DNA of 64,000 bases from an uncultured Bacilli bacterium (GCA_944332025.1 CALVJB010000002.1:26566-90565); one strand, 5' to 3'; positions 8,617 to 48,653 are shown, numbered from the stretch's first letter. The notes: a model not told the origin generated them from the sequence alone. Made by a program: numbers and translations.

Positions 8617-8618
8617 TT

Positions 8619-8924: not shown

Positions 8925-8942
8925 TAAAAACTAGTCTTTTTT
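8919..8942 (+). terminator. rho-independent terminator
   Basis: GACTAG/CTAGTC stem, then TTTTTT. Confidence 0.65.
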
Positions 8943-9033
8943 CTTGGTTGCAACTGAAAATTTACATAAATTAACTTAAAATTGGTGGGACGCAACCGAG
9001 TTTTTTGGTAAATTTTAAACAGAGGTGAGAAAT

Positions 9034-10410
9034 ATGTTTTTTGCTAGTAATTTGCAAAAGTTAAGAAAAAGAGAAAATATGTCTCAGGAAGCTTTAGCTG
9101 AAAAATTAGATGTTACAAGACAATCTGTATCTAAATGGGAAAGTGGGGCAAGTTATCCAGAGATGGATAAATTAATATCTATATGTAAGATCTTTAATGT
9201 AGATATGGATACTTTAGTAAATGGAGATGTAGATGAAAAGAAAGATACAAATAAGGAGACTACTATTAATACTAAAGATCTTTTAGATAAGTTTAATACT
9301 TTAATGAAAAAGATAGTTTGTCTTTTTGAAAGTATGAGTTTTAAAGAGATAATAGAGTTTTTAGTAACAGTATTTCTTTTAATTATTATTATTTTAATAG
9401 GGACTATACCTAAAGATATTATAGAGAATCTAATAGGAGATGGACTTTTATATGATATTGCATATGTAGGACCTGCACTTAATACGATATTTACATTTAT
9501 AGTAGATATTTTATATAGTGTTTTTTCTATAGTAATATTTATCTATGTCTTAAAGATTAAATACCTAGATAGAATTAAAATAAACGAAGATACTGATAAA
9601 GAGATAGTTGCAAAAGTTAAAGAGAAAAGAGTAGAAGAAGTAGAGAGAGTTATTATTAAAGATAATAATAGTAATTCTTTAACAAGAACACTTGCTAAGA
9701 TAATTATTTATATAATTAAGTTTTTTGTAGTATTATTTCTTTTCGCACCACTTATATGTATTGTAGTATTTGCAGTTATGTTAGGGTTTGAAGTGTTATT
9801 TGTTATAAAGGGACTTCCTTTAATAGGGATACTTTTATGGACAATAGCAGGTATAATAATTACTTCATTATGTTTTGAAGTACCTTTAAACTTTGTTATT
9901 AATCATAAAAATAATTATAAAAGAGTAATGATTACATTACTTATATCACTTATTATAATTATTATAGGTTCTATTATATTTGCTTTTGAATTCTTTTCTT
10001 TAACTTATGTAGATAGTCTGCCTATTGATGTTAAGACTAAAGATATTATAGAAACATTACCTATGACAAGTGATTTTAAGACTATAGGATATTATCATAA
10101 TGATATAAAATATGTAGTAGATGATAGTCTGACAGATAGAGTAGAGGTAACGGTTACTTATTATGACTATTTAGTAGATTATAATATAGAAGTGGAATTA
10201 CATAATGATAATTTATTAGTTTATATGGATAGTCCTAAAGAATTTAGCTTTAAGGATGCATTAGACAAAATAAGTGATGATATTAAAGATGGTAAGATCT
10301 ATAATTATGATAAGTTAAATGAATATAAAGTTACTATTAAAACTAGTAGTGATAATATTAATATAATAAAAAATAATAATAAAGAATTCTTTAATGAAAA
10401 TAATTCCTAG
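9034..10410 (+). CDS. XRE-family HTH regulator fused to a multi-pass membrane domain
   Basis: HTH_3 (SQEALAEKLDVTRQSVSKWESG) followed by at least 4 TM helices. ATG at 9034 with AGAGGTG RBS; ORF track starts at GTG 9025. Confidence 0.65.
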   Translation: MFFASNLQKLRKRENMSQEALAEKLDVTRQSVSKWESGASYPEMDKLISICKIFNVDMDTLVNGDVDEKKDTNKETTINTKDLLDKFNTLMKKIVCLFESMSFKEIIEFLVTVFLLIIIILIGTIPKDIIENLIGDGLLYDIAYVGPALNTIFTFIVDILYSVFSIVIFIYVLKIKYLDRIKINEDTDKEIVAKVKEKRVEEVERVIIKDNNSNSLTRTLAKIIIYIIKFFVVLFLFAPLICIVVFAVMLGFEVLFVIKGLPLIGILLWTIAGIIITSLCFEVPLNFVINHKNNYKRVMITLLISLIIIIIGSIIFAFEFFSLTYVDSLPIDVKTKDIIETLPMTSDFKTIGYYHNDIKYVVDDSLTDRVEVTVTYYDYLVDYNIEVELHNDNLLVYMDSPKEFSFKDALDKISDDIKDGKIYNYDKLNEYKVTIKTSSDNINIIKNNNKEFFNENNS

Positions 10411-10988
10411 TTAAGTTTAGGAATTATTTTTTCATTTACATAGTTTAATGTTACTAAGTTAGAGATACTATCTAATGCTTCTTTAGTAGTCTCTATTATA
10501 TAAGTACAGTTTTCTTCATATAACTTACTTTTTATAATACTATCTTTAAGTAAATAGTTAATCTCTTTTTCTTTAGAATATGGAAAGGTAATAGATGCTT
10601 CTATTCCTTTAATTAACTCTACTAAAGTAGATTTATTAATAACTTCTTTACATGTATTAGAATAGGCTCTAATAAGACCTCCTGGACCTAATTTAATGCC
10701 TCCAAAGTATCTAATTACTACTGCTAAAACATTTACTAGATTATTACCTTCAATAACATTTAGAATAGGAATACCTGCAGTTTTATTAGGTTCTCCATCA
10801 TCACTAAAGCCTTTATTATTGATTAGAGTAAAAGCATAACAGTAGTGAGTAGCATTTTTATATTCTTCTTTTAGGTTATTTAGATTATATTTAACATCAT
10901 CTAGAGATTCTATAGGTATAATAATTCCTATAAATTTAGAGTTTTTAATATTAGTTTCATATATTTCTTTATTTATAATACTCTTCAT
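10407..10988 (-). CDS. yigZ: YigZ/IMPACT-family protein
   Basis: UPF0029-type motifs (HYCYAF, SDDGEP, GTAGIPIL); 193 aa. Confidence 0.75.
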   Translation of the reverse strand: MKSIINKEIYETNIKNSKFIGIIIPIESLDDVKYNLNNLKEEYKNATHYCYAFTLINNKGFSDDGEPNKTAGIPILNVIEGNNLVNVLAVVIRYFGGIKLGPGGLIRAYSNTCKEVINKSTLVELIKGIEASITFPYSKEKEINYLLKDSIIKSKLYEENCTYIIETTKEALDSISNLVTLNYVNEKIIPKLN

Positions 10989-15697: not shown

Positions 15698-18388
15698 ATG
15701 AGATATATGACTAGTAATGAAATTAGAAAGATGTGGATTAAATACTTTGAAGAGCATGGACACAAATATGTTAAATCTGCTCCCTTAATTCCTATTAATG
15801 ATGATTCACTACTTTGGATTAATGCTGGTGTTACACCATTAAAAAAATACTTTGATGGAAGCATAACCCCTGAGTCACGTAGAATTGTTAATATTCAAAA
15901 ATGTATTAGAACTAATGATATAGAAAATGTTGGTGTTACTAAAAGACATCATACTTTCTTTGAGATGATGGGTAATTTTTCGATTGGAGATTACTTTAAA
16001 GATGAAGCGATAGAGTTTGCTTATGAACTATTAACAAGTAAAGACTGGTTTAATATTCCTAAAGAGAAACTTTATGTAACAATCTATACAAATGATTCTG
16101 ATGCTTATAATAAATGGATAGAAGTAGGAATGGATGAAGATCACATTATAAAACTTGAAGGTAATTTCTGGGAAATAGGAGAAGGTCCATGTGGTCCTGA
16201 TAGTGAGATATTTTATGATCAAGGTGAAAAACTAGATCCCGATGGTACTGCTTGGGAGAAGTTTATTCATGATGAAGATCAAGATCGTTATGTAGAGATA
16301 TGGAATAATGTGTTTAGTCAGTTTAACTCTAAAGCTGGTGTAAAAAGAGAAAAATATGAAGAACTCCCTCATAAAAATATTGATACAGGTGCAGGACTAG
16401 AAAGATGGGCTTGTATCTTCCAAGGTGTTGAATCTAACTTTGAGACTGATTTATTTAAACCAATAATCGAAAAAATAGAAGAACTTAGTGGAGTTTTATA
16501 TAATGGTGAGGTTGCTTTTAAAGTAATAGCAGACCATATGAAAGCGGTAACATTTGCTATTAGTGATGGTGCAAGTTTTGGTAATACAGGACGTGATTAC
16601 GTTTTAAGAAGATTAGTAAGACGTAGTGTTAGATTTGGTAGAACTCTAGGATTTAGTGAACCATTCCTTTATAAATTAGTTCCTACTATTGTTAATGTAA
16701 TGGGAGAAGCTTATCCTGAGTTAAAGAAAAACTCTGGAGAAGTAGCAGTTTATATTCTTGATGAAGAGAAACTATTCTTTAATACTCTAGAAGATGGAGA
16801 AAGACGTCTAAAAGAGATTATGTCTGATGATAATGATAAAGTAATTAGTGGTTATGATGCTTTTAGATTATATGATACTTATGGTTTCCCATTAGAATTA
16901 ACAGAAGAAATTGCTAGTGAGAATGGATATACTGTTAACGCGCAAGAATTTAATGATTATATGACAAAACAAAAAGAACTTGCTAAAAAGAATTCTCGTA
17001 GTAAAACATCTATGGCTACTCAAAAGAAAGTCTTAATGGACTTTACTAAACCTTCAACATTTGTCTATGGATTATATCGTTTGAAGAGTAGTGTTCTTGC
17101 TATAGTTAGTAAAGATAAGTTAGAGAAGTCTCTTGATCACTCTGGTTATATCATTTTAAAGAGAACTTGTTTCTACTCAGAGTCTGGAGGACAAGTATCT
17201 GATACAGGTATGATTATAGGTAAAAACTTTAAAGCAAGAGTTGTTGATGTATTTAAAGGACCTAATGGACAACATATTCATAAAATTAAATTACTTGATG
17301 GAGTTGTTCATGTTAATGATGAAGTAGAAGTAATGGTTGATAAACCTAGAAGAAAAGAAATAGAAGCGAACCACTCTAGTGTTCATATGCTTCAATATGC
17401 TCTACAACAAGTAGTTGATAAAAATATTAGACAAGCAGGTAGTTATGTAGATGATGAGAAACTTAGATTTGATTTTACTTGTCCATCTAAAATTACTGAT
17501 GAAGAAATTGTTAAGACAGAAGACTTTGTTAATAAGATGATAAGTAAAAATATTATAACTTCTACTGAGACTATGCCAATAGATAAAGCGAAAGAATTAG
17601 GGGCAATGGCTTTATTTGGAGAAAAATATGGTGAGACTGTTAGAGTTGTTAAAATAGATAAATCTATAGAACTTTGTGGTGGTACTCATGTTGCAAATAC
17701 TAAAGATATAGGTAAGTTTGCAATATTTAACTTTGAATCTAAAGGAAGTAATACTTATAGAATTGAAGCAGTTACAGGTAGTAGATTAGAGAATACTTTA
17801 TTTGAAGTAATTAAACCATATAATGATGAGATGGTTAAACTATTAATAAAAGCTAAAGAAATACTTGCTCTTGCTAAAAGACAAAACATTAACTTAGATT
17901 TTGATGTTGAAATAGATAATAGTGTACCTACTTCATATAAAGATATTATCTATAATCAAAATGAATTATCTTATGTACAAAGTGAAGTTAAAGCACTTGA
18001 AAAAACTTATAATAATGAAGTAGAGAAACTTACAATATCAAGTTTAGATGCTTATTTAGATAGAGTAAAAGAAGTTAATGGAAAAAAACTATTATACTTA
18101 GAACTTGATAATTTAGAGATGTTTTTAGTAAAGACTATGGCAGATAACTTATGTAATAAATTTGATGAAGTAGTAGTATTCTTAGCTAATATCAAAGAAG
18201 ATAATAGTGTTAACTTTATTTGTCGTAGTTCTGTCTCTTCTGTTAATGCAGGATACATCGTTAAAAATATAACAACTGCCTTTGATGGTAATGGAGGAGG
18301 TAGTTCTACATTTGCTCAAGGAGGTATTAAAGACAAGAGTCATTTAAAAGATATAAAGCAAGCTTTAGAGGATTTAATCAATGAATAA
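15698..18388 (+). CDS. alaS: alanyl-tRNA synthetase
   Basis: 896 aa. Class II motifs (FFEMMGNFSIGDYFK, WNNVFSQF). C-terminal HxxxH editing motif and a C-terminal GGG C-Ala-type domain. Confidence 0.95.
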   Translation: MRYMTSNEIRKMWIKYFEEHGHKYVKSAPLIPINDDSLLWINAGVTPLKKYFDGSITPESRRIVNIQKCIRTNDIENVGVTKRHHTFFEMMGNFSIGDYFKDEAIEFAYELLTSKDWFNIPKEKLYVTIYTNDSDAYNKWIEVGMDEDHIIKLEGNFWEIGEGPCGPDSEIFYDQGEKLDPDGTAWEKFIHDEDQDRYVEIWNNVFSQFNSKAGVKREKYEELPHKNIDTGAGLERWACIFQGVESNFETDLFKPIIEKIEELSGVLYNGEVAFKVIADHMKAVTFAISDGASFGNTGRDYVLRRLVRRSVRFGRTLGFSEPFLYKLVPTIVNVMGEAYPELKKNSGEVAVYILDEEKLFFNTLEDGERRLKEIMSDDNDKVISGYDAFRLYDTYGFPLELTEEIASENGYTVNAQEFNDYMTKQKELAKKNSRSKTSMATQKKVLMDFTKPSTFVYGLYRLKSSVLAIVSKDKLEKSLDHSGYIILKRTCFYSESGGQVSDTGMIIGKNFKARVVDVFKGPNGQHIHKIKLLDGVVHVNDEVEVMVDKPRRKEIEANHSSVHMLQYALQQVVDKNIRQAGSYVDDEKLRFDFTCPSKITDEEIVKTEDFVNKMISKNIITSTETMPIDKAKELGAMALFGEKYGETVRVVKIDKSIELCGGTHVANTKDIGKFAIFNFESKGSNTYRIEAVTGSRLENTLFEVIKPYNDEMVKLLIKAKEILALAKRQNINLDFDVEIDNSVPTSYKDIIYNQNELSYVQSEVKALEKTYNNEVEKLTISSLDAYLDRVKEVNGKKLLYLELDNLEMFLVKTMADNLCNKFDEVVVFLANIKEDNSVNFICRSSVSSVNAGYIVKNITTAFDGNGGGSSTFAQGGIKDKSHLKDIKQALEDLINE

Positions 18389-19319
18389 TTTTTTGATTAA
18401 AAGTGATTCTATAAGTCTTATAGATAAGAAAATAGAAGAACTAATTAAAGAAAAAGGATTTAATGATGTTAGTAAAGCTAGCATTACTACTTATGATTTA
18501 GAAGAAGATAGTATTATAACTCTAATAGAAGATGCTGATACTATCTCTTTCCTTACTCCTAATAAAGTAATAATAGGTAAGAATCTATCTAATAATAACT
18601 TAGATGATAAAGCATTAGAGACTTTATCTAAATACTTAGATAATCCTAATAGTGATGTTTTATTAATCTTTGTAACTACTAATATCGATACAAGAAAAAA
18701 GATAGTTAAAGAAGTTATTAATAAACTTTCTTTAGTCAATATAAGTACTAATACTAAAGAAATAGTTAAAGATATATTAAAGGAATATGATGTAGAATAT
18801 AGAGTTATTAATCTTTTAGAAGAATATTATAGTGAAGATTTAGAAAGACTAATTAGTGAGACTAAGAAGTTAGCTTTAGCTTTCATTAATACTAAGAAAA
18901 TTACTTACAAAGATGCTTTAGATTTATTAGTTAAACCTTTAAATAAACAGGATACTCTTGCTTTTGATTTGGTTCGTGAGATAGCTTTAAAAGATAAGAA
19001 GAAAGCTCTTAATATCTATAATGAATTACTTAGTTATAATATCGAAAGTTATGCTTTATTTGGATTATTAGAAAGTCAATATAGACTTCTTTATCAAGTA
19101 AAAGTTTTAAATAAAAGAAATATTTCCTATAATGATATGGCAAGTATTTTAGATGTACATCCTTTTAGGGTTAAGAAGACTCTAGAACTAGTTAGATATT
19201 ATACTTTAAAAGAGATAAGAAAACTACTTATGAATCTTTCTGATATAGATTATAAAATTAAAAGTGGTATCTATGAAAATAATATAATTATAGATTTGTT
19301 AATATTAAATATCAAGTAA
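18381..19319 (+). CDS. holA: DNA polymerase III delta subunit-like
   Basis: 312 aa. Layout resembles HolA/YqeN (N-terminal alpha/beta, C-terminal helical KKALNIYNELL ... region). Overlaps alaS by 8 nt. Confidence 0.55.
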   Translation: MNNFLIKSDSISLIDKKIEELIKEKGFNDVSKASITTYDLEEDSIITLIEDADTISFLTPNKVIIGKNLSNNNLDDKALETLSKYLDNPNSDVLLIFVTTNIDTRKKIVKEVINKLSLVNISTNTKEIVKDILKEYDVEYRVINLLEEYYSEDLERLISETKKLALAFINTKKITYKDALDLLVKPLNKQDTLAFDLVREIALKDKKKALNIYNELLSYNIESYALFGLLESQYRLLYQVKVLNKRNISYNDMASILDVHPFRVKKTLELVRYYTLKEIRKLLMNLSDIDYKIKSGIYENNIIIDLLILNIK

Positions 19320-19329
19320 TATATACTTC

Positions 19330-19358
19330 TTGATATTTTTCTTCTTTTATGATATAAT
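19330..19358 (+). promoter_or_regulatory. sigma-A-type promoter TTGATA-17-TGaTATAAT
   Basis: Near-consensus -35, 17-nt spacer and an extended -10, 25 nt upstream of the AAGGGGGA RBS and the ATG at 19383. Confidence 0.6.
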
Positions 19359-19382
19359 ATGCACTACATAAAGGGGGATATT

Positions 19383-21050
19383 ATGAAGAATTTAAAGAAA
19401 TATAATTCTAATATTTTTAAAGGAATAGTAAAAGGTTTTGTACTTGGGTTGATTGCTTCTAATGTTACGATTATAGGGAGTAATGCTTTTAATAGTTTTA
19501 GATATGAAAGTGAATTATTAAATGAGAAAAAAGAAAAAGAGAGGAAAGAAAAAGAAGCTTTAAATCAAGAATTTGAAAGTTTATTATCTACTAGTGATTT
19601 AGAAATAAGCGAAGAAGCAAGTGAAGCGATTAATAAAATCTCTTTAGCTCCTCTTAATATGACTTATTTAGAAGATTTTGATATAACAAAAGAAAGTGTA
19701 TCTCTTGCTTATCAGGACTCTTCAGAATTTATTAATCATATAAATACGAGACTTTATGAAGAAGAGAGTAATAGTATTGACTGGGATGAAGCAGCTTCTA
19801 TTATTTATCAAAATGGTATATCAATAGAAGATTTAGATGATAGTATAGAACCTTTATCATTTGATGAAGTAAAAGAGCAAGTAGAGTGGATTGAAGAATT
19901 TTATAGCGAAGTTAAAAGTGACTTTAAAGACTATGATACAAAAGAACTAGCTTGTCTACTTGAAGATTATTCTTTTTTAAAAACTAGTACTGAAAAAGGT
20001 AATATAGTCGCTGAAACAACATTAGATAATATTACTTTTTATCCATTATACTATCAAGAACCTCGTATTTTGAAGGAAGCGACAACTAAGCATGAAGCGG
20101 TGCATTTACTAGTTAATCCTTGTATAGATGTTTCTATTAAAGATATGAGTGGTGGTATAGATGTTTTAAATTTAAATGGAGATGGCAATTACATCGATTT
20201 ATCTAGTTATATATTTAAATTTATAGAAGAGATATATGCAGAACTTTATTCTAAAGAAAAAACTATAGGTATTCAGTTAAGTTATAATAATTATGATGAA
20301 GCTTTAAACTATTTACAAGCAGTACTTGCTTTGGGAGATACTTATCAAGTAGATCTCTTATTACAAAATCTTTTATATAAAGATGCTAGGGGTTTTGTTC
20401 AAGAGTTACCTTCTTTTGGTCCTAATAAAGAAAAGCTTTTACTTGATACTTTAAAATCTATTAAAGCTTTAGATTTATTTGTAAATCCTGATTTAAACTA
20501 TTTATCTTATCTAAAAGATAAATATCCTGATATTAGTTATGAGAAAATGCTTATGGAAATAAAAGATTATTTTATTAGTGGTTTAGGAAAGCTTTATTAT
20601 AATAATTTAATCTTATTAAATGAAAAATATAATCTAACATTAGAAGATAATACTGCTTTAACAATTCTTTACTGGAAATTAATAAATAATGTTAAGGAAG
20701 GAAATATGTATTTAGTAGATGAAGAGGAAACTAACGACTATCTTCTTTATCCTAATAAAGATTTAAGTTATTTATTAAGAGAGTATCCATTATTAAAAGC
20801 TAATTATTCTAATTTAGATATTCATGATTATCATGATATATTTGTAGAATACTTATCTAAAAAATATAACATGGATAAAAATGATGTTTATGATGCAACT
20901 AAAGATACTAGCATTTTAAAGAAAGATTATCAAATGCCTAAAGTATTAGGAGAAGAAAAACAAGAATTTTATCAATGGCTATGGGAAGATAAAAGTGATG
21001 AGATAGATTTATTTAATAGTAGAGAACTTGTAAAGGAAAAAACGAGGTGA
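19383..21050 (+). CDS. N-terminally membrane-anchored hypothetical protein with HEAVH motif
   Basis: TM helix at residues ~15-35, a charged coiled-coil segment, then a large domain containing TKHEAVHLL (HExxH). ORF track begins at 19359, but RBS and promoter support 19383. Confidence 0.6.
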   Translation: MKNLKKYNSNIFKGIVKGFVLGLIASNVTIIGSNAFNSFRYESELLNEKKEKERKEKEALNQEFESLLSTSDLEISEEASEAINKISLAPLNMTYLEDFDITKESVSLAYQDSSEFINHINTRLYEEESNSIDWDEAASIIYQNGISIEDLDDSIEPLSFDEVKEQVEWIEEFYSEVKSDFKDYDTKELACLLEDYSFLKTSTEKGNIVAETTLDNITFYPLYYQEPRILKEATTKHEAVHLLVNPCIDVSIKDMSGGIDVLNLNGDGNYIDLSSYIFKFIEEIYAELYSKEKTIGIQLSYNNYDEALNYLQAVLALGDTYQVDLLLQNLLYKDARGFVQELPSFGPNKEKLLLDTLKSIKALDLFVNPDLNYLSYLKDKYPDISYEKMLMEIKDYFISGLGKLYYNNLILLNEKYNLTLEDNTALTILYWKLINNVKEGNMYLVDEEETNDYLLYPNKDLSYLLREYPLLKANYSNLDIHDYHDIFVEYLSKKYNMDKNDVYDATKDTSILKKDYQMPKVLGEEKQEFYQWLWEDKSDEIDLFNSRELVKEKTR

Positions 21051-21056
21051 TAAGCT

Positions 21057-22286
21057 GTGAATAGTGATAAAATTACAGAAAGAGATAATATTATTAAAAT
21101 GATGGATAATGCATCATCAATTGAGGATCTTTTAAAAATAAAATGGTTTTTTAATAAAAGATTTGGTTCTAAATACTATAATATTAAATATAATGCTGTT
21201 GCAAGAAATATAGAACGCATTTCATATGATACTGCTTTATCAAATGCTCCTTCTATAATTGGCGATTTACTTAAAGGTAGTGCTATAGAAAGCATTAAAG
21301 ATAATTATAATATTACTACAGAAGCGATTAATAGATTACTTATATTATATATTGAGAATGGTACTTATCCTAATAAATTTATACATTTAGTAGATGTAGT
21401 ACCAGAACATGATAGAGAGTTTATTAGTGCCAAGACTGCTATTAAACTTTTTATTGATAATAACGTATATAATATTAAGAAGATCTATGCTGAATTTAAT
21501 TGTAAAACTGAAGAATATAATAAATATTTAAGTATTCTAAAAGCTAAGAACCATTCTTTGTATTTTCTATTTAAAAAATTACAAAAAGAACATAACGATA
21601 AATCTACTTTAGAATATAAAATTAAATTTTATGATAAAAATAGAGAAATTAAACTAAAGACTATAGAGTCTGTTAGTAAATTAAATTCTAAAGAAATATT
21701 AGAAATATTATCTAATCCACATAGTAAAGAATTTATTAATTTTTGTCTTTATTATAAGTTAGATAGTAGAGTCTTAATACAACTTTTAAATGATAATAAT
21801 ACTCTTAAAGAAGAACTTTCTAATAATAAAGAACATATAACTGATATATATAATATATATTTGAGTAAATATAAAGATATAGTTAAAGAGCTTATATATG
21901 AAATTAAGATACTTAGTACAGATGGCTTTAAAGAACCAATAGACTTATATCATTATTATACTAATACGAATTATGATTTAGCAGCACTTTCAAGATTAGC
22001 TTTAACGTTTACTGATATTAAAAATACTAAACTTTTATCTATATATATTGAAAGAAATCCATCTCTTTTTAAAGGCATTGTTCAAAAAGAGATGGATGGT
22101 TATAAGCAAAGAGGAATAATAAGTTGTTCTAAAGATAGTGTTTCTTTTACTAAAGAAGAACTAAATAAAGCGATAGAGGATATCAAAGTAAATAATTTAC
22201 CTATGATTAAAGGTGTTTTATATGGTGCAATTAAAAGACAAGTTGCATTTAGAAATGATTTTACAATGAAAAAAAGTTTGTTTTAA
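21057..22286 (+). CDS. hypothetical protein (409 aa)
   Basis: GTG start 6 nt after a GAGGTGA RBS, 7 nt after the preceding stop. No family recognised. Confidence 0.5.
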   Translation: MNSDKITERDNIIKMMDNASSIEDLLKIKWFFNKRFGSKYYNIKYNAVARNIERISYDTALSNAPSIIGDLLKGSAIESIKDNYNITTEAINRLLILYIENGTYPNKFIHLVDVVPEHDREFISAKTAIKLFIDNNVYNIKKIYAEFNCKTEEYNKYLSILKAKNHSLYFLFKKLQKEHNDKSTLEYKIKFYDKNREIKLKTIESVSKLNSKEILEILSNPHSKEFINFCLYYKLDSRVLIQLLNDNNTLKEELSNNKEHITDIYNIYLSKYKDIVKELIYEIKILSTDGFKEPIDLYHYYTNTNYDLAALSRLALTFTDIKNTKLLSIYIERNPSLFKGIVQKEMDGYKQRGIISCSKDSVSFTKEELNKAIEDIKVNNLPMIKGVLYGAIKRQVAFRNDFTMKKSLF

Positions 22287-36778: not shown

Positions 36779-37408
36779 ATGGATTTAAAACTTAAAAAAG
36801 TAAAGACTAAAGTAACTAATAAACTAGCAGAACAGAAAAAAATATATATCTTTCTAATAATAGTAATGCTTATAGGTTTAATACTTGGTATTATCTATGC
36901 TGTTATATTAAATAAGAGTGATCATAATTTAGTAACTACAAGTCTAGATAGTTTCTTTACTAGTATTAAGAAGAATGATATAGACTATAAAAGTGCTTTA
37001 ATTAATAGTTTAGTTGGTAATATTTCTTTTGTAACATTTATCTTTTTATTAGGTATATCTATTATAGGAATACCTCTAATTATCTTTAGTTTAGCATCAT
37101 CTACCTTTATTTTTGGTTTTTCTTTATCATCAATTATCTATACATATCACTTTAATGGTATTTTAAAGGCTATTACTTATCTTTTTCCTCATCAGTTGAT
37201 TACTTTATTAATGAGCTTGTTTTTAGGATTCTATGCCCTTTATTTTGGTATTAAACTATTTAAATACTTATTTAGAGGTATAGATATTAATCTAAGAAGT
37301 TCTATGAAAAGATATCTACAAGTATATGTAACAGTTCTATTAATATTTATAGGTTGTAGTTTTATAGAAGTATTCTTATCTCCAGCTTTAATTAAATTAG
37401 TAGTTTAA
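36779..37408 (+). CDS. polytopic membrane protein, possibly SpoIIM/DUF95-like
   Basis: About 5 TM helices and ~210 aa. AGGTGA RBS before the ATG at 36779. Family assignment is tentative. Confidence 0.35.
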   Translation: MDLKLKKVKTKVTNKLAEQKKIYIFLIIVMLIGLILGIIYAVILNKSDHNLVTTSLDSFFTSIKKNDIDYKSALINSLVGNISFVTFIFLLGISIIGIPLIIFSLASSTFIFGFSLSSIIYTYHFNGILKAITYLFPHQLITLLMSLFLGFYALYFGIKLFKYLFRGIDINLRSSMKRYLQVYVTVLLIFIGCSFIEVFLSPALIKLVV

Positions 37409-38928
37409 TTAAGAGTTAAAGTCTTAGCTTTCTCCTCATTAAAATAATAGTGTATATCCTGATCAAGTTTAACTTCACTAACAATACTAGCATACTTAAA
37501 TAATCTATCCAATTTATCATAGTCATAAATTTCATCATTATATGCAAAGAAAGACATTAACATATTAGTAACTTCTGTAGTATTTTCAGTATCATCTAAT
37601 GTAGATTCTAATAATTTAAAGAAATTATTTACATGTAAATAAGCAGCTTTTTCACTAATATAACTATTATTATTTTTATATGCCTCTTTTAATTCTTCTT
37701 TAATTATAGATGCATCATCTGTACTCATCGCTTCTAAAAAACTATCTTTACTAATTATATCAATAGTAGCCTTTGTAACTGCTATATTTTTATTATAACC
37801 TCCATAATCTTGTTTATTTTCTTCTTTAAAGTATTCATTTTCTATAATTTCTGCAAATCCTTCTACATAGGCAGTAGGAATACTCCTAGTATCAAAAATA
37901 GCATGAGTAACTTCATGACCTATAATTGATCTAGTAGGAGTACAATAATAAGTAATTGCATCATTATAATAACTAGCTTTGATAACAGTGTTATTATAGT
38001 TATCTTTACCATTAGAAAAAGGATTATAATTACGTATAAAATCTAGATTTATTAAACTCTCATAAACTTCTTTAGTATCTAGATAAGGATTACTATTAAA
38101 GAAGTCTAGAAACTCATACATTACTTCCTTTTCTTTATTATTAGCATAAGGATTATTATTAATAGCATTAAGTAGTAAATAATTATCTATTTCTTCTTTA
38201 GTATTAACATTATCAATACTATATTTGTCATCATTAGTTATCTTCATAACTTCAATTTCTATATCTTTTAATAAAGTGTTTAGTTCATCTTCACTTAAAC
38301 TATTTTTATCATCATAGTAGTTTAAAATACTTTCTTCGTTATTAGTACTTGTTTTTTTGTTATAAGAAGTATTTATAATACTAGTACAAGTTATAATAAT
38401 ATAGATAGTTAACATCTTTAAAAGTTTTAGACGATGTTTATAGTTTTTATTTTCTAATGCTTTGTTTAATTTGAACTCTTTTAAATTAGAATTTATTTGT
38501 AATTTTTCTTCTTCATTAAGTAAATATACATGATTTTTTTCTTGTTTTAAAACATCTCCACTAGGTGTAATAATTATTCTACTATTATTATCATCTTTGG
38601 CTATTTTAGAATCTATTAAATCATTTAAATTAATAGTTATTCCTTTTAAGTTTAACTTTTCTATATTACCATTTAGTTTTCTTGTACTTAACTTTAAACT
38701 CTTACTATATCTAGTTATATATATTTCTTTAATATATTTAATAGTAAGAAATGGTATAGTAAGGTTAGCAATGGCTAGATTCGTTTTTAATAATTCTAAA
38801 ACAGTATTAGTTATAGCATATATAATAATATTATTACCAAGGTATGTGATATAGGGGATTTTATTTTTCTTAACTATTTTAATATTTAAAATATCATTTA
38901 TAATCTCTTCATCAAGCACTTTTTTCAA
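37405..38928 (-). CDS. membrane-anchored hypothetical protein with HEVTH zincin-like motif
   Basis: 507 aa with one central TM helix (LKMLTIYIIITCTSII). C-terminal domain contains IIGHEVTHAIF followed by EG 14 residues later (gluzincin-like spacing). Confidence 0.5.
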   Translation of the reverse strand: MKKVLDEEIINDILNIKIVKKNKIPYITYLGNNIIIYAITNTVLELLKTNLAIANLTIPFLTIKYIKEIYITRYSKSLKLSTRKLNGNIEKLNLKGITINLNDLIDSKIAKDDNNSRIIITPSGDVLKQEKNHVYLLNEEEKLQINSNLKEFKLNKALENKNYKHRLKLLKMLTIYIIITCTSIINTSYNKKTSTNNEESILNYYDDKNSLSEDELNTLLKDIEIEVMKITNDDKYSIDNVNTKEEIDNYLLLNAINNNPYANNKEKEVMYEFLDFFNSNPYLDTKEVYESLINLDFIRNYNPFSNGKDNYNNTVIKASYYNDAITYYCTPTRSIIGHEVTHAIFDTRSIPTAYVEGFAEIIENEYFKEENKQDYGGYNKNIAVTKATIDIISKDSFLEAMSTDDASIIKEELKEAYKNNNSYISEKAAYLHVNNFFKLLESTLDDTENTTEVTNMLMSFFAYNDEIYDYDKLDRLFKYASIVSEVKLDQDIHYYFNEEKAKTLTLN

Positions 38929-40208: not shown

Positions 40209-40226
40209 GTATTATAGGTGGTTAGC

Positions 40227-40994
40227 ATGAAAGATTTAAACAAATTATTAAGTGAACTTGGAATTTCGAAGGTGAGACTTGCTAAGTATTTAGGAGTATC
40301 AAGACAAATGTTATATAACTATCTAGCTTTAGATAGTTTATCATTGTGGCCTAAAGAAAAAGCAGTTAGATTACTTGCTTTATTAAATATAGAAGATGAA
40401 GAAGAAGTAAGTGGTATAACTGTAACTAGTGACTATATTATTGAGGTTGAAAATAGATTAAATGAAGGGGTAAAAGATTCTTCTAATAGAGAAGTGTTAG
40501 CAGACCTTAAATGTTTTAATAAAAAAGAACAAGAAATAATGGCTGATATAATTAACCTATTAAAAGAAAAATTATCAGAAGATAAGACAAAAACTACTTA
40601 TAATACATATGTATATTTATATCATTACTTACAGTCAATGGAAACTGCAGATGAATTAAGATATATTTTAGGTTATATGTCTAAATCTATGGGATTTACT
40701 GATCCAATGGAATTTGTTTTTGATAAAGATAAGCAATTTATATTTGAAAGTATTTTATTCTCTGCTATGACGTTATATCATAATGGTGGTGCTTCTAAAA
40801 ATAAAATAGCAGAAACCCATAAGAGATTTGTTCAAGATATTGAAGCTAAAAAAGAAGAGAAACTTAGTCGTACTCAAGAATTAAATACTGCTAAAGTACA
40901 AGCTTTGAGAGAACTTGGATACAGTGAGATTAATGAAACTAATGCTAAAGAAGTACTAGAGAAAATAGCAGAGATTCAATCAAGAAAGGTATAA
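40227..40994 (+). CDS. HTH-containing hypothetical protein
   Basis: N-terminal HTH-like segment (ISKVRLAKYLGVSRQMLYNYL); AGGTGG RBS. Confidence 0.5.
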   Translation: MKDLNKLLSELGISKVRLAKYLGVSRQMLYNYLALDSLSLWPKEKAVRLLALLNIEDEEEVSGITVTSDYIIEVENRLNEGVKDSSNREVLADLKCFNKKEQEIMADIINLLKEKLSEDKTKTTYNTYVYLYHYLQSMETADELRYILGYMSKSMGFTDPMEFVFDKDKQFIFESILFSAMTLYHNGGASKNKIAETHKRFVQDIEAKKEEKLSRTQELNTAKVQALRELGYSEINETNAKEVLEKIAEIQSRKV

Positions 40995-42004: not shown

Positions 42005-42184
42005 ATGAAAAAGAAACAAAGTATTAAATGCGACGTTGATAGTTGCAAATATAATAGTAACAATCAAGAATGCAACTTAGATGAAATTAAGGTTAGTAGT
42101 AACTGTGACTGTCCAAAAGATGAAGTTTGTGATCAAGAACAAACAGTATGTGCTAGCTTTGAAAAAAATGAAGAAGAAAACTAA
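42005..42184 (+). CDS. DUF1540-like small Cys-rich protein (59 aa)
   Basis: Not in the ORF track (<60 aa). AAGGAGAG-7-ATG. Repeated CxVxxCxYN / C..D..C pattern: KCDVDSCKYNSNNQECNLDEIKVSSNCDCPKDEVCDQEQTVCASF. Confidence 0.6.
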   Translation: MKKKQSIKCDVDSCKYNSNNQECNLDEIKVSSNCDCPKDEVCDQEQTVCASFEKNEEEN

Positions 42185-42226
42185 TAGAGTGATGAACTCT
42201 ACTAGTTTTTTGTTTACTACTCTTCC

Positions 42227-43398: not shown

Positions 43399-44316
43399 TT
43401 AATTCTCCTTTTTAGCACGAGGATGATTATCTAAGTAATCATTCCTAACTTTTTCATTAGTAATATGTGTATATATACGGGTAGTAGCAATATCAGAGTG
43501 TCCTAAAAGCATTTGAATACTTCTAAGGTCTGCTCCCCCATTTAATAAATGTGTTGCAAAAGAATGTCTTAAACTATGAGGAGATATATCAGGATCAAGA
43601 CCTTTTTCTTTTAAAATCTCTTTTAAATTCTTAAAGAATCCTTGTCTTGATATACCTGTTCCTCTAGAGTTTAAAAATAAATAATCAGACTGTTTCTTTT
43701 TTAATAGTAGATGTCGTTTATCTAAATATTCATTTAAATAATACTTTTCTACATCATTAATAGGAACAATTCTCTCTTTACTGCCTTTACCTTTAACTCT
43801 AACAATATCGTTATTAAAATCTATATCATAAACTGTTAGACTAATAAGTTCAGATACTCTTAGTCCTGAACCATACATTAATTCTAACATAGCTTTATTC
43901 CTATAGTCAAATGGGGTATCTAGTTCTATATCTAAGAGTTTATCTACTTCTTCTATAGTTAAACTATGTGGAAGTGTTTTAGTAGTCTTAGGTCTATCTA
44001 TAAATTCACTAGGATTGTTAGTCTCATTTTCTTCTTTTTCTAAATAGTTATGAAAGTTCTTAATAGTAGTAAGTTTATGAGCGACAGTTTTACTATCTTC
44101 ATTACGAAGATAGCAGTATTTTAGATATTTAGTTATAGTATCTTTAGTTATATTTTTTGTATTATCTATTTTCTCTTTTTCTAAAAAATTAATATAGTCT
44201 TTCATCTCATAGTCATAACTTTTAATACTATTATTAGAAAGTCCTTTTTCAAACTCACAGTAATTTAGAAAATTATCTTTAGCAGTCATTAGTTTCATAA
44301 CATCATCTTCTTTCAA
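43399..44316 (-). CDS. xerD: tyrosine recombinase XerD/XerC family
   Basis: R..HxxR..Y catalytic set (LRHSFATHLL ... LLGHSDIATTRIYTH); 305 aa. Confidence 0.85.
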   Translation of the reverse strand: MKEDDVMKLMTAKDNFLNYCEFEKGLSNNSIKSYDYEMKDYINFLEKEKIDNTKNITKDTITKYLKYCYLRNEDSKTVAHKLTTIKNFHNYLEKEENETNNPSEFIDRPKTTKTLPHSLTIEEVDKLLDIELDTPFDYRNKAMLELMYGSGLRVSELISLTVYDIDFNNDIVRVKGKGSKERIVPINDVEKYYLNEYLDKRHLLLKKKQSDYLFLNSRGTGISRQGFFKNLKEILKEKGLDPDISPHSLRHSFATHLLNGGADLRSIQMLLGHSDIATTRIYTHITNEKVRNDYLDNHPRAKKEN

Positions 44317-44319
44317 ATA

Positions 44320-47300
44320 TTAATATGACATAGTAACAGTAGTAGTAATATCTTTATTATTTTCTTTATTAAGTTCTAAAAGACTATTAAGATCCTCTTT
44401 ATGCTTTTCTTTAACTAAATACATAGATAATACCTGTTTCATCTTTTTATACCCTTCATCAGTTAAATTATCTATAAAATTATCGTGTCTATATATTCCT
44501 TCTTCATCTGCATAGTGGTTTTCTCCAAAATCCCATATTGCATAAGAATCTTTAAATTCATCTAGCTCTTTTCCTTTAGAAGCTTCAATAAAACTAGTAG
44601 CAGCATCATAAAAAGATCCCCCATTTTGTAATACCCAGTTTTCAATACCTATACCACTAATACCACCTTGCTGCTTTTTATAAACTTCCGCAGTTTTTAA
44701 TGTTTTTTTCGCTTCTATTACATTTGCAAGTACAAGGTTATATTTATCGCTACTTTGTTCTTTAATAGAGTTATATCTATCTTTTAAAGCTTCATCAGAC
44801 GAATACTCTAATTTATCTGTTTTAGGTATAAAAGTAATATCTATATCAATAGGTTTATCTATACCTTTAATTTTTACATTTTTAAATCTAAAATTACCAT
44901 TTAATATTTCATTTTTATGTTCTATTCCTAATTTTTTTAGTAAGGCGTCTTTAACATTTTCGAGCTTTACAGGATCAGAAATTATTTCCCTGTCTAGTCT
45001 CATAATAAAATCATAATCCCCATCACCTGGTAAGTTTGTATCTCTTCCAGTAGATCCCGTATCAATAAGTTCAACTGTACCATTTTCAAGTTTTTTATCT
45101 ATTTTGTTTTTTAATCCTAAATTTACTTTACCTAAACCATCTTTAAGTGTTGCATTTATCGCTTCCCTGTTTCTTTTATTTTCCTCTTCACTTTGATGTA
45201 AAGTGTTAGCGATTTTTTCTATTTCATCAGTTTCTAATTTACTAGATACATTATATTTACTAGTACCATAGTAAGATAAGCCTTGCATTTTAGAACGCAA
45301 ATTATCATAATCATTAGGAGTAAAAATAACTTTTTCAGTTTCTTTATCAATAACAGGAATATAAAAGCCATTTTTAGCAATTTCAACACCTATACGATTA
45401 TCATTATTAGCAGTAATAATATAATCAATGTTACTTGAGGCAAATCCCGTTCTAATACTATAAGTATCAGGACCCGCATACGTTTTAAATACTTCAAGTT
45501 TATTCATTATGTCATTAATATTTTTAGAAGTTATTATCTCACCATTTTTATCTCTAGTCAAAATAAATCTATCATCGTTTTTTAACACAAGCCATATAGG
45601 ACCCAAACTTCCACTATAAGATGATGAGATTGTATCAGAAATTCTAAGATGCTCATTTACCATTGATACATCAGTATCTAAAGGAGTATAATCACTACTA
45701 GCATCAGAACCTAAATATTCTTTAGCAACGGAACCATTTTGTAATATATTAGATAAATATCTAATATCCCCTATGCCTTTAATAAAATCTCCAGTTTCTA
45801 AAATTTCTTTATTTTCTTTTATTCTTTCTCTATTTCTATTATTTGCTTTATTAATACTATCATTCATAGCTTTCTCTAAACTTTCTATACTATCAAATCC
45901 TGCAAAATGACAGAACATGCTAACTAATCTATCACCTATATTTTCTTTATCATCTATATTTAAATTATTTATATAAAAGTTAATTTTTTCATTTAAATTC
46001 ATATCTTGATTATAGACATCATCATATCCTTTTTTAGTATTATAATATAAAGTATCTAAGTGACTCATAAAAGTATTTAATAAAGTTTGTTGTGCCTTAT
46101 TTAAGTCACTAAAACTTATATTATTAGTAGCAAGGTCATTAAATAAATAACTACCATTCTTTAAATTATTAATATATTCTCGCATTACCCTATTATTAGA
46201 ACCTACAGAAGATTTTATTAAATCAGAAAAAATAATTGTTTCTCTACCTCTTGTAGACTTACATTTTAAAATCGGCGATACCATAGAATTATCACTAAAA
46301 TTAAAGTCATTAAGACCCGGATGAAGTATTTCAAAAGTTAAGAAGACTTTTCCTACAGTTGGTAAATTATTTCTTATAAAGATATTTTCTACTTTCTCAA
46401 AACTTTCTTCTGGGTTATTAGATTTAATAATTTCTGTAAGCATTGCTTTAGCATGATTTTTAAGCTCACTAGAATTAGAATTTATAATTTTAGCAGCAAT
46501 ACTAACTAATGTTTCAATTTTATTATCATCATAATTGTTGCCTTTAATACAATCCTTTACTATATTGGTAATTTCTTCATTATTATACTTTCTAATAATA
46601 TTATATATATGAAATTTTCTTTTACTTGCTTCATTAACATCAAGTTCATTATATAAGTTTGCTAAAAAAAACCACTTAGGATCTTTGGCTATTTTTTTAA
46701 CAACACTATTACAAAGATTAGCTTCAATACTTGCACTATTAGCATTAGAAGATAAATCAAAATGTTCACCATCAAGTTTGGTCGCACATATTCCATATTT
46801 TGCTATTAAATTTAAAAAACTTTCTTTACCAAATCTTTTTATATAAAATTCTTGAAAATCTATAATTTCATTATTGTACTCTACTTTAAAATTTCCATCT
46901 ATTTTAATATTTTTATTTGCTAAATCAGGTATATATTTGCCATACTTTTGTAAAGCATAAGCAGTAATTTTCTTTGCTTCTTTACTCTCTAAAAATATAT
47001 CAAAAATTTTTTCTGTTAAAACTTCATTTGATATAGAAGATTTTGGAACGCTTTTAATATATTCTAAAACAGAAAAAATGACATCAGCATTATTATGAAT
47101 ATAAAGGTCAAGACCAATATTTGTTAAAAAATATCCAAACAAAAAAGATTTAGAAGAAAAAATACTAGTTTCTTTTTCGAATTCCAAAATATTTTTAATA
47201 CCTAAAGCATTAATTGCATCAAATTGTCTTTTATTAATTATAAAAGTTTCATCAGTATAATTTAATAACTCTTCAAAAGTTTCATAATGACTCACAAAAT

Positions 47301-48591
47301 CATAATTCATAGATTTAGCCCAATCTACCATATATGATTTACTACCATCTTCATTTATTTTTTCTTGTATACTTTCATTTTCCCATTCATGGATATACTT
47401 TTGCAAAGCAACTGATAAATCACCTTCAAAATTTGTAGTACCAGCTAAATACTTGTTAAATTCGTTTAATTTTTTATTGTAATAAAGATGATCTAATACA
47501 TCTCTATGTCTTTCAATAAAATAACTAAAACTATTTATACCAATTTTACTTATAAGTTCTTTTATATAATAATTATCATAATTTCTATCATCTATAAAAC
47601 TATGATAATCAATTTTTTTCAAAATATTTAGATTATTAACAATATCTTCATAAGTTAATTGTTTATTATAAAAATGATCTCTTAACTCATCAGGAATATT
47701 AATATCTATTAAGAATATATCATTATTTTCTTTAATAAAATCTTCTGTAAATTGTTTAGGATCTATAACTACATTTGTATTTATTAAATTGTTCCTAATG
47801 TAGTTATAAATTGTATTTTTTATATCTTTAGATTCTACATTACTTAATAAAGGTTTTATTTTGTATTCATCTAAATAACGGTAAAGATGTGTCCCTCCAT
47901 ATCTATTTAAACTTGCTAATTTTTCTATTTCTTGATAATCTTTAAGATTCTCTTTATATAATTTAACAGCTTTTTCTAAACCTAACATTTCTATCATTTT
48001 ATTTGTTGATTTATCACACCTATTAAAGTACTCAAAGCCATTAGAACTTGTATATATTCCTTTCTTGCTTATTTCTTCTATTTGACTATCTGTTAAAGTA
48101 ACAAAATCTTTAGTACTTAAAGTTCTAGTATAATATTTATCTTTAAAATCAAGAGGGAAATTAGAAGATAAAAATATATCTTGATTTTCACTAATAGTCT
48201 TATCATCAAAATATTCTTCTTTTAAACCATAAAATCTTTCTAAGTTTCTTATAGTACAGTTTTTAAAATTAAAATTATTTCCATCAAGTTCTATAATATT
48301 AAAATCTATATTCGCTTTTGTTTTGGAAAAGTCAAGCACATCATTTTGAGTAGCTGCTAAAAATGGTAAATCTCTATATTCTTCAGAAGGTATGTCACTT
48401 AAATCACTTGATAATAATAGATTTTGTAAAGATAAATATTCATTAAAAAACTGTCTTAAAAAATCTTGTTCATTAAAATTAGGATTATTTTCATTACTTT
48501 CCACTATACTTTCTGCTTCTCTATAAATTCTTTGCATTTCTTTTTTTATGCTATTAAATTCTTCTATAGTTAATTTTCTATTGTTATCCAT
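44320..48591 (-). CDS. 1423-aa hypothetical protein with C-terminal Pol-beta-superfamily nucleotidyltransferase motif
   Basis: Long ORF overlapping the xerD start. Encodes IDTGSTGRDTNLPGDGDYDFIM (GS-x9-DxD NTase signature) at about 45025-45075, with a downstream IDIDITF strand. Confidence 0.7.
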   Translation of the reverse strand: MDNNRKLTIEEFNSIKKEMQRIYREAESIVESNENNPNFNEQDFLRQFFNEYLSLQNLLLSSDLSDIPSEEYRDLPFLAATQNDVLDFSKTKANIDFNIIELDGNNFNFKNCTIRNLERFYGLKEEYFDDKTISENQDIFLSSNFPLDFKDKYYTRTLSTKDFVTLTDSQIEEISKKGIYTSSNGFEYFNRCDKSTNKMIEMLGLEKAVKLYKENLKDYQEIEKLASLNRYGGTHLYRYLDEYKIKPLLSNVESKDIKNTIYNYIRNNLINTNVVIDPKQFTEDFIKENNDIFLIDINIPDELRDHFYNKQLTYEDIVNNLNILKKIDYHSFIDDRNYDNYYIKELISKIGINSFSYFIERHRDVLDHLYYNKKLNEFNKYLAGTTNFEGDLSVALQKYIHEWENESIQEKINEDGSKSYMVDWAKSMNYDFVSHYETFEELLNYTDETFIINKRQFDAINALGIKNILEFEKETSIFSSKSFLFGYFLTNIGLDLYIHNNADVIFSVLEYIKSVPKSSISNEVLTEKIFDIFLESKEAKKITAYALQKYGKYIPDLANKNIKIDGNFKVEYNNEIIDFQEFYIKRFGKESFLNLIAKYGICATKLDGEHFDLSSNANSASIEANLCNSVVKKIAKDPKWFFLANLYNELDVNEASKRKFHIYNIIRKYNNEEITNIVKDCIKGNNYDDNKIETLVSIAAKIINSNSSELKNHAKAMLTEIIKSNNPEESFEKVENIFIRNNLPTVGKVFLTFEILHPGLNDFNFSDNSMVSPILKCKSTRGRETIIFSDLIKSSVGSNNRVMREYINNLKNGSYLFNDLATNNISFSDLNKAQQTLLNTFMSHLDTLYYNTKKGYDDVYNQDMNLNEKINFYINNLNIDDKENIGDRLVSMFCHFAGFDSIESLEKAMNDSINKANNRNRERIKENKEILETGDFIKGIGDIRYLSNILQNGSVAKEYLGSDASSDYTPLDTDVSMVNEHLRISDTISSSYSGSLGPIWLVLKNDDRFILTRDKNGEIITSKNINDIMNKLEVFKTYAGPDTYSIRTGFASSNIDYIITANNDNRIGVEIAKNGFYIPVIDKETEKVIFTPNDYDNLRSKMQGLSYYGTSKYNVSSKLETDEIEKIANTLHQSEEENKRNREAINATLKDGLGKVNLGLKNKIDKKLENGTVELIDTGSTGRDTNLPGDGDYDFIMRLDREIISDPVKLENVKDALLKKLGIEHKNEILNGNFRFKNVKIKGIDKPIDIDITFIPKTDKLEYSSDEALKDRYNSIKEQSSDKYNLVLANVIEAKKTLKTAEVYKKQQGGISGIGIENWVLQNGGSFYDAATSFIEASKGKELDEFKDSYAIWDFGENHYADEEGIYRHDNFIDNLTDEGYKKMKQVLSMYLVKEKHKEDLNSLLELNKENNKDITTTVTMSY

Positions 48592-48653
48592 ATTATACTA
48601 CCTCCGTATATTAAAATTATACAACAGTTTTCTTATTTTAAAAAGGCTTGATA

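Follow-up and report, generated by a model that had tools for sequence, protein, structure and literature searches.

The window analyzed here is a 64,000-nucleotide (nt) stretch of DNA from an uncultured Bacilli bacterium (GCA_944332025.1, CALVJB010000002.1:26566-90565), with a G+C content of about 26%. On its minus strand, at 44320..48591 with the stop codon included, lies an uninterrupted open reading frame (ORF) for a giant protein of 1423 amino acids (aa). An earlier note, made from the sequence alone, had reported this frame, and the ORF list and the translation agree with it. Gene calls on an ENA metagenome scaffold of 111.8 kb, and on a contig from Logan, gave the identical 1423-aa protein. 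A GGAGG ribosome-binding site, read directly in the sequence, is found 9 nt 5' of the ATG (48601..48605, minus strand), inside a 112-nt divergent spacer that the gene has in common with tmcAL. From the N to the C terminus, the protein is composed of a module of divergent repeats (aa 1-640) and a C-terminal module (C-module; aa ~640-1416), in which a helical domain, an alpha/beta domain, and a nucleotidyltransferase (NTase) domain follow one another. By its predicted structure, the C-terminal region of ~300 residues is a Pol-beta-superfamily NTase of the two-lobed group that includes poly(A) polymerases (PAPs), terminal uridylyltransferases (TUTases), class I CCA-adding enzymes, oligoadenylate synthetases (OAS), and cGAS/DncV-like nucleotidyltransferases (CD-NTases).

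The C-terminal nucleotidyltransferase domain

The NTase domain spans aa 1120-1416 (44344..45234, minus strand), as delimited with AlphaFold2 and Foldseek. An AlphaFold2 model of aa 1120-1423, built with an 86-sequence alignment (A3), had a mean predicted local distance difference test score (pLDDT) of 93.8 and a predicted template modeling score (pTM) of 0.88. In this model, a long N-terminal helix leads into a palm made of strand-GS-helix, a strand bearing DxD, a further strand, and a strand bearing a single Asp. The palm is followed by a helical second lobe (helices at model residues 146-230), a small hairpin, and a long C-terminal helix. A Foldseek search of the PDB gave 53 matches at E ≤ 1e-3. 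The 50 best listed, each with a probability of 1.00, are all Pol-beta-superfamily NTases of one enzyme group, whose members act on RNA or nucleotides without a template, and the alignments to PAP, TUTase, class I CCA, OAS, and CD-NTase enzymes extend over about 290-350 columns. The best match, 1r89 (E 1.8e-6), is a CCA-adding enzyme of class I from an archaeon. PAPs of yeast and humans, the uridylyltransferases Cid1, TUT4, and TUT7, OAS1, and CdnC, a cyclase of a cyclic-oligonucleotide-based antiphage signaling system (CBASS), were also matched, as were the DZF pseudo-NTases NF90/NF45.

The catalytic motif is G1179-S1180-x11-D1192-x-D1194 (45010..45057, minus strand), carried by aa 1176-1197 (IDTGSTGRDTNLPGDGDYDFIM). 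Among the 86 aligned relatives, G1179 and S1180 are kept in all, D1192 in 85 (with a Glu in the other one), and D1194 in 85. The third catalytic carboxylate, D1251 (44839..44841, minus strand), belongs to IDIDITF (aa 1248-1254) and lies on a predicted strand (model residues 129-137); it is Asp in 82 of the 86 and Glu in 2. The second lobe bears the motif N1290-x4-K1295-x3-K1299-x4-Y1304 ... GG-x-GG-x-G-x-E1317-N-W1319-x-LQ-x-GG (44617..44724, minus strand), of which GGISGIGIENW (aa 1309-1319) is a part. N1290 and K1295 are invariant (86/86), K1299 is kept in 83 and Y1304 in 85, and G1310, G1315, E1317, W1319, and G1325 are each present in all 86. An hG[GS] motif with [DE]x[DE] on the next strand, a third carboxylate, and an alpha/beta palm are the features of the Pol-beta superfamily, and a helical second lobe with basic, Tyr, and Gly-rich residues that bind the NTP is that of the two-lobed group; the domain has all of these features, and its metal-binding triad is intact.

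The GS...DxD motif is no chance match, because it is invariant or nearly so in the 86 relatives and because the segment is predicted to adopt an NTase fold. The earlier note had read an NTase signature at this end of the protein, with IDIDITF and GGISGIGIENW behind it, and had made its reading depend on the fold of the segment and on conservation of the catalytic acids. The reading holds on both counts, since the confident model has the NTase fold and the active-site residues are kept in 82 to 86 of the 86 relatives. The motif spacing that it gave, GS-x9-DxD, needs correction, because 11 residues separate S1180 from D1192.

CD-NTase models are the sole sequence-level resemblance of the window protein. 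Pfam SMODS (PF18144) matched aa 1164-1209 only, at E 0.01 and 16.5 bits, against a gathering threshold of 26.5 bits. Three PADLOC models of CBASS cyclases matched below threshold (E 6e-4 to 2e-3; 14-17 bits), one of them across the whole palm. The Pfam NTP_transf_2 family was found in only 1 of 30 relatives (E 0.002). The earlier suggestion of a cGAS/DncV-like enzyme is therefore right as to the two-lobed group, with OAS1 and CdnC among the structural matches, but the curated SMODS and CBASS thresholds are missed.

The closest structural relative is the class I CCA-adding enzyme of A. fulgidus (1r89, 4x4u, and 1ueu). As in that enzyme, an N-terminal helix precedes the strand-GS-helix unit, DxD lies on the next strand, the third Asp follows two strands on, and a helical neck carries a basic/Tyr/Gly-rich motif. 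The GS-x11-[DE]xD spacing of the class I enzymes is one that we take to be the same as here. However, the body and tail domains that bind tRNA are absent from the giant protein, which ends about 100 residues past the second-lobe motif in a hairpin and one long helix. Foldseek covers only the head and neck of the 430- to 440-aa CCA targets (target-normalized template modeling [TM] score, 0.33-0.37). The TM-score is about 0.46-0.49 at 14-16% identity, and there is no sequence match even by profile. The NTase described here is, moreover, set within a 1423-aa protein, behind two unrelated domains. The two-lobe layout of a catalytic and a central domain, and a similar size, are shared with Cid1, TUT4, and canonical PAP, and Cid1 has the highest target-normalized TM-scores (0.45-0.49). 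Pfam NTP_transf_2 and PAP_assoc are undetected in the window protein, and these enzymes have no counterpart of its long terminal helix or of WDFGENH...HDNF, an insert near the C terminus that is specific to the family. The CD-NTase CdnC (6u7b) and OAS1 (4rwp) are structural matches at E about 2e-4 and have a long helix before the palm, as the giant protein does; the score under the Pfam gathering threshold sets it apart from SMODS.

Enzymes of the GlnE and KNTase types likewise combine a Pol-beta fold with a second, helical lobe, and the large accessory domains of the giant protein could bind a protein substrate. The domain might then be a nucleotidylyltransferase that acts on a protein or a small molecule by AMPylation or adenylylation, in the manner of GlnE, DrrA, or the aminoglycoside NTases. 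We consider this highly improbable, because none of the 50 best structural matches is GlnE, DrrA, or a KNTase-type enzyme, and all 50 are RNA-end or nucleotide-acceptor enzymes or pseudoenzyme relatives.

The conserved C-terminal module and the repeats ahead of it

We searched Pfam and NCBIfam with the whole protein and with five fragments, and nothing scored above threshold; the sub-threshold SMODS match over GS...DxD was the one signal. Nothing was matched in the first ~1150 residues, just as the earlier note had found no recognizable family there. Thirty full-length relatives and three relatives of 2500-3300 aa likewise gave nothing above threshold in Pfam or NCBIfam, and a PHROGs search gave no match. 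Sequence searches of the PDB with the whole protein, the NTase fragment, a mid-domain profile (A5), and the 86-sequence profile (A3) returned chance matches only, namely, heparosan synthase (E 0.012) and designed repeat proteins. A BFVD search returned only weak matches to uncharacterized phage proteins, one of them a "large polyvalent protein associated domain" protein. A literature search for a description of the giant-protein family found none.

The 1423-aa protein has no signal peptide and no hydrophobic segment (top 19-residue Kyte-Doolittle mean, 0.96). Because both are absent, the protein is probably soluble and cytoplasmic. One homologue of the C-module, P0006, ends in a hydrophobic, transmembrane-like segment (GYVIFGVTFIISFLMTTITIVICLL) that is absent from the window protein. 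Judging from this C terminus, some family members may be membrane-anchored.

To follow the C-module, we made a hidden Markov model (HMM) profile of aa 640-1423 and searched 1.84 billion representative proteins exhaustively. The module was found in 1209 clusters at E ≤ 1e-3, and 816 clusters had E ≤ 1e-30. Of the 150 matches listed, 149 align without a break, from profile positions about 1-95 to 770-812; the alignment of P0175 stops at 682. The module is usually C-terminal in proteins of 1100-1750 aa, and a few carriers have 3000-6100 aa. A BLAST comparison of 26 homologues from the first search gave the same boundary, with aa ~640-1400 common to P0005-P0008, whose N termini differ. By these alignments, the ~780-aa C-module is always inherited as one piece, the NTase strictly together with the two domains ahead of it.

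An AlphaFold2 model of aa 640-1130 (pLDDT 89.2; pTM 0.89) has an all-helical domain packed against an alpha/beta domain. The helical domain (aa 640-925; 45817..46674, minus strand), delimited by the model and by conservation, has the near-invariant polar motifs SNSSEL, ENIFxxNNLPxVGK, FSDL, and GSNNR, and gave no significant match by structure or by sequence. The alpha/beta domain (aa 934-1104; 45280..45792, minus strand), recognized from the model and its invariant residues, has the motifs GDF[IV][KR]GIGxIxxLxxILxNG, SDxTPLDxD, KxExFxT, HYGxRTG, and NGFYIP. Because both domains carry many invariant polar residues, the two together probably form a second ligand-binding or catalytic site.

This site is possibly, and tentatively, ADP-ribosyltransferase (ART)-like. 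With the aa 640-1130 model, Foldseek found no significant match in the PDB. Proteins of the ART fold (DarT, CteC, exotoxin A, cholix toxin, and tankyrase) make up about 18 of the 50 best weak matches. All of these are non-significant, and the best of them, DarT (7omx), has an E of 0.9 and a probability of 0.35. ARTs have a split beta-sheet and a triad of the H-Y-E or R-S-E type. The strand/helix order, a basic residue on strand 1 ahead of a helix that ends in Gly, and a conserved Glu where a later strand begins are presumably points of likeness to ARTs. The differences are that no ART match is significant (target-normalized TM-score ≤ 0.37), that the first motif residue is Lys or Arg, that the middle motif is TPLDxD and not STS or Tyr, and that the conserved Glu is replaced by Ser in one of the aligned members. 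The alpha/beta domain had no Pfam or PDB profile match, and no Pfam family of ARTs was found in 30 members.

The N-terminal module (N-module; aa 1-640; 46672..48591, minus strand) consists of divergent tandem repeats of about 150 aa, as detected by hhalign and a motif scan. When the module is aligned with itself, aa 4-224 match aa 155-371 with a probability of 95.5%, and aa 276-371 match aa 123-224 with 93.9%. Each repeat carries the motif F[LI]-x(4-6)-P-x-[EF]-L/[KR]-x2-[FY][YF] (aa 139-154 and 292-308 in the scan), and most members of the family have it in their N-terminal regions too. The N-module has no Pfam match. Between the window protein and its more distant relatives, the C-module is 44-48% identical and the N-module 30-34%. 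The three tandem paralogs of one locus, L071, show the same pattern, with C-modules 72-77% identical and N-terminal parts 35-44%. By these identities, the N-terminal part evolves much faster than the catalytic module. Tandem paralogs were seen at two loci in all, three at L071:2527-14628 and two at L026:182-12782, and over both loci the C-modules are 72-77% and the N-terminal parts 35-49% identical.

The N-module is not confined to this family. It also occurs in proteins of ~1600 aa (P0009-P0026), ahead of an unrelated C-terminal part of ~930 aa. An hhalign comparison of that part with the C-module found no homology, and it has no Pfam or PDB match. It carries the motif IGTLTDCCQEL..MEHS..GRxF..RD..G.IVAQSWxWRNKDxLCFDNIEIP, and the window holds no copy of that family. 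At three loci (L007, L026, and L043), the N-module has an ORF of its own, directly upstream of the C-module ORF and 0-26 nt away from it; a split gene, a frameshift, or an error of assembly could account for each.

Distribution and possible roles

A scan of one genome per GTDB species found the C-module encoded in 437 loci/genomes; it is nearly always C-terminal, and the median protein length is about 1500 aa. We fetched 78 loci from related genomes to compare taxonomy and neighborhood. About three quarters are labeled uncultured Bacilli, and the rest Mycoplasmatota, Tenericutes, Erysipelotrichaceae, or Firmicutes/Clostridia. They come from the guts of humans (Hadza), mice, rabbits, and ruminants, and their median G+C content is 27%. 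Four loci, L062, L064, and L067 (match at ~8001-10450 in each) and L074 (432-2750), lie in metagenome-assembled genomes (MAGs) labeled Candidatus Saccharibacteria; they have the C-module with unrelated N termini. The G+C content of these loci is 0.40-0.42, versus the median of 0.27, and these copies may reflect cross-phylum transfer or mislabeled bins.

We looked for conserved neighbors by all-against-all clustering of 1034 ORFs from 79 loci and found spurious antisense ORFs only. Among flanking ORFs of at least 40 aa, taken as candidates for immunity genes, none is conserved, and the downstream ORFs are unconserved across 73 cases. Searches of 50,697 records of phages, of 72,556 plasmids, and of IMG/VR gave no match to the N-module or to the C-module.

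We propose that the giant protein is a soluble cytoplasmic enzyme of two evolutionary units, a repeat array and a catalytically competent NTase module. Its family would be large, unannotated, and chromosomally inherited, and confined to uncultured animal-gut Bacilli/Mycoplasmatota-type MAGs and some Saccharibacteria-labeled MAGs. We regard this as the probable explanation. In this scenario, the N-terminal repeats would probably provide recognition of a target or a partner. The NTase would use two-metal-ion chemistry to transfer a nucleoside monophosphate (NMP) from a nucleoside triphosphate onto a ribose hydroxyl, carried either by the end of an RNA or by a second nucleotide. We infer NMP transfer because every structural relative either performs it or descends, as a pseudoenzyme, from one that does. 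The unit of helical and alpha/beta domains may bind the same substrate as the NTase or modify it further.

Several points weigh against this proposal. TM-scores to known NTases are only about 0.46-0.52, at identities of 11-17% (Foldseek), and no curated NTase family reaches threshold by sequence in Pfam, NCBIfam, or PDB profile searches. The modest scores and low identities indicate that the domain is an outlying member of its group, near no single family. Homology does not reveal its substrate class, and RNA, nucleotides, proteins, and small molecules are all conceivable acceptors. The structural matches behind the ART-like reading of the alpha/beta domain are non-significant (E about 1; probability ≤ 0.35), and the motif likeness is a presumed one. 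The recognition role of the N-terminal repeats is purely what we infer. Finally, the fast-evolving repeats and the tandem paralogs fit a role in conflict or defense at least as well as one in housekeeping.

The protein could then be a single-polypeptide sensor in anti-phage or other conflict, whose N-terminal repeats sense an invader and activate a cGAS/OAS/CD-NTase-like domain. That domain would make an oligonucleotide signal or modify invader or host RNA, with the helical and alpha/beta part as effector or regulator. CBASS cyclase models and SMODS are its only sequence-level matches, CdnC and OAS1 are among the structural ones, the recognition-like N terminus diversifies much faster than the catalytic module and occurs in tandem paralog arrays, and the same N-module is swapped onto alternative C-terminal parts. 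However, the PADLOC matches, at 14-17 bits, are far under family-level scores, and no separate effector gene or other conserved neighbor is present. No CBASS operon (effector, Cap2/3, or HORMA/TRIP13) was found in the 78 loci, and the neighbors in the window are tmcAL and xerD. The giant gene lies outside defense islands and mobile elements; the contexts seen are housekeeping ones, and the gene keeps its place in one syntenic block across divergent genomes, which is unusual for defense genes. The diversifying N terminus and the tandem paralogs favor a conflict role, but its classical forms are hard to reconcile with a housekeeping context that is stable and with the absence of partner genes. 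On balance, we hold such a sensor to be unlikely.

A very unlikely alternative is that the protein is a secreted polymorphic toxin or host-directed effector, with a conserved N-terminal trafficking region and exchangeable toxic heads. The head in this case would be an RNA-tailing NTase like MenT/AbiEii, either alone or joined by an ART. The organisms that carry it live in the gut, and some of the MAGs are labeled Mycoplasmatota, Tenericutes, or Saccharibacteria, lineages with reduced genomes. The occurrence of one N-module with two unrelated C-terminal modules also fits exchangeable heads. In the systems of polymorphic toxins and polyvalent proteins, toxin heads are commonly NTases or ARTs, and polyvalent proteins resemble the giant protein as very large multidomain proteins able to combine an ART with a Pol-beta NTase (PMC5512222). 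However, the polyvalent-protein NTases are minimal four-strand, NTox45-like enzymes fused to ArdC-N in type IV secretion system contexts (PMC5512222, Iyer et al. 2017), unlike the two-lobed enzyme found here. In addition, the present family is chromosomal, has no MPTase, ArdC, or MuF domain by Pfam, and gave no match in the collections of phages and plasmids or in IMG/VR. The protein has no signal peptide, transmembrane segment, or Pfam-detectable trafficking domain (LXG, RHS, or MuF). It has no conserved downstream immunity-like ORF, even among those of at least 40 aa, the downstream gene here being xerD, and no secretion-system gene is among the conserved neighbors. It is also the N terminus that varies most and not the C-terminal head, the reverse of classical polymorphic toxins. 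From these comparisons, the giant protein is not a class I CCA enzyme, a Pfam SMODS protein, a CBASS component, a polymorphic toxin, or a polyvalent protein.

One further possibility concerns the C-module as a hitherto unrecognized bifunctional modifier of nucleic acid ends or nucleotides. The ART-like domain and the PAP/OAS-like NTase would act in sequence on the same substrate, and the repeat arrays would aim them at the target. Examples would be RNA ends that become both ADP-ribosylated and nucleotidylated, or the synthesis of a new nucleotide signal from NAD. The module would then be shared by horizontal transfer between gut Bacilli and the Saccharibacteria-labeled lineages, as a lineage-specific system of conflict or host dependency. 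We judge this combination quite unlikely.

The proposal of a repeat-guided cytoplasmic NTase thus concerns a large and deeply divergent NTase family, with an unprecedented three-domain module fused to repeats. The fold is familiar, and the family is large and ecologically relevant. At least 816 protein clusters (at 50% identity) and 437 species-level genomes carry the module and belong mostly to abundant, uncultured gut Bacilli of humans, mice, rabbits, and ruminants, and no curated database describes any part of it. The family adds a deep outlying branch to the NTase group of PAPs, CCA-adding enzymes, OAS, cGAS, and CBASS cyclases. Its substrate could reveal a new RNA-tailing or nucleotide-signaling activity in Firmicutes-type bacteria, or a new single-protein conflict system, and knowledge of it would assign a function to genes that are among the largest dark ones of these small genomes.

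The xerD junction and other genes of the window

The gene downstream of the giant gene is xerD (43399..44298, minus strand), a neighbor and no part of the system, identified by the gene call and by TIGR02225 (338 bits, above the cut-off; E 4e-101). It is followed by deoB (NF003766; E 1e-141), as the earlier note had stated. That note also had the stop codon of the giant gene overlap the start of xerD. In fact, the TAA stop is at 44320-44322 and the called xerD ATG is at 44298, which leaves a gap of 21 nt; even the earliest possible in-frame xerD TTG, at 44316, is 3 nt past the stop. Co-transcription of the two genes, which the note had drawn from the overlap, stays plausible on other grounds: the gap is 21 nt, a consensus scan detected nothing like a terminator in it, and a terminator-like hairpin stands 3' of deoB (42177..42209, minus strand). 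The hairpin comes from the consensus scan only, which gave two sites versus 1.1 expected, and likely ends the giant-gene/xerD/deoB transcript in this genome. A promoter scan was uninformative in such AT-rich DNA (42 found versus 51 expected). At 44314-44322 (minus strand), the giant gene and xerD are in one reading frame, which runs through TAA and TAT to the in-frame TTG. Read-through of the stop codon there would fuse the giant protein to XerD; the match of frames, expected in 1 of 3 cases, is probably due to chance.

The arrangement, 21 nt apart with a hairpin only after deoB, would suit a giant protein that is co-transcribed with XerD and acts with it in chromosome dimer resolution, and the closest relative, L003, has the same gene order. 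We give this partnership almost no credence, because L003 is the only one of the 78 related loci with xerD directly 3' of the giant gene. In L039, xerD is about 6 kb off on the opposite strand, and in L081, which has the same block, xerD-deoB is kilobases off on the opposite strand. In both, the giant gene stands on the other side of deoB-xerD, in opposite orientation to them, and other relatives are in unrelated contexts. The link to dimer resolution implied by the earlier note is accordingly unsupported, and the adjacency looks like synteny inherited within this genus, in a Bacillus-like block (spoIIM-mnmA...deoB-xerD), and not a functional partnership. The order xerD-deoB-spoIIM is presumably the ancestral Bacillus-type order, as in ripX/drm/spoIIM of B. 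subtilis.

The window is a piece of core chromosome, and its genes include asnB, an AsnRS/AspRS-type tRNA synthetase gene, alaS, mgsA, mutS, xseA, spoIVB, spoIIM, mnmA, deoB, xerD, tmcAL, gmk, pyk, fpg, and polA. The block of spoIIM, mnmA, and a helix-turn-helix (HTH) gene, followed further on by deoB-xerD, occurs with the giant gene in L003, L039, and L081 as well. Across the loci, linkage to xerD, deoB, tmcAL, gmk, or mnmA is limited to close relatives or to this syntenic block, and the P0007 gene follows dnaG-sigA-trmK. A link to tRNA-modification genes was considered, since tmcAL, mnmA, trmK, or miaA/B are near some members, and was set aside as not general.

Several other ORFs of the window belong to no recognized family. 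Two adjacent ORFs of 563 and 409 aa (19359-21050 and 21057-22286, both plus strand) lie between alaS and mgsA and have no Pfam match at E ≤ 1e-5. A 507-aa ORF between spoIIM and mnmA (37405-38928, minus strand) has no Pfam family, and the gene is also present on the ENA scaffold. The HTH gene (40218-40994, plus strand) encodes a protein of ~255 aa with a weak N-terminal HTH (sub-threshold in Pfam). Its place 3' of mnmA is the same in the window, in L003, and in L039 (74-95% identity); in L081, that place is taken by an unannotated gene for 255 aa. The syntenic block that holds the giant gene seems, with it, to include a conserved regulator-like gene that is specific to the lineage. In L081, a 1054-aa protein of many zinc-ribbon (DZR/Zn_Ribbon_1) repeats is encoded between the giant gene and deoB (16368-19532, minus strand).

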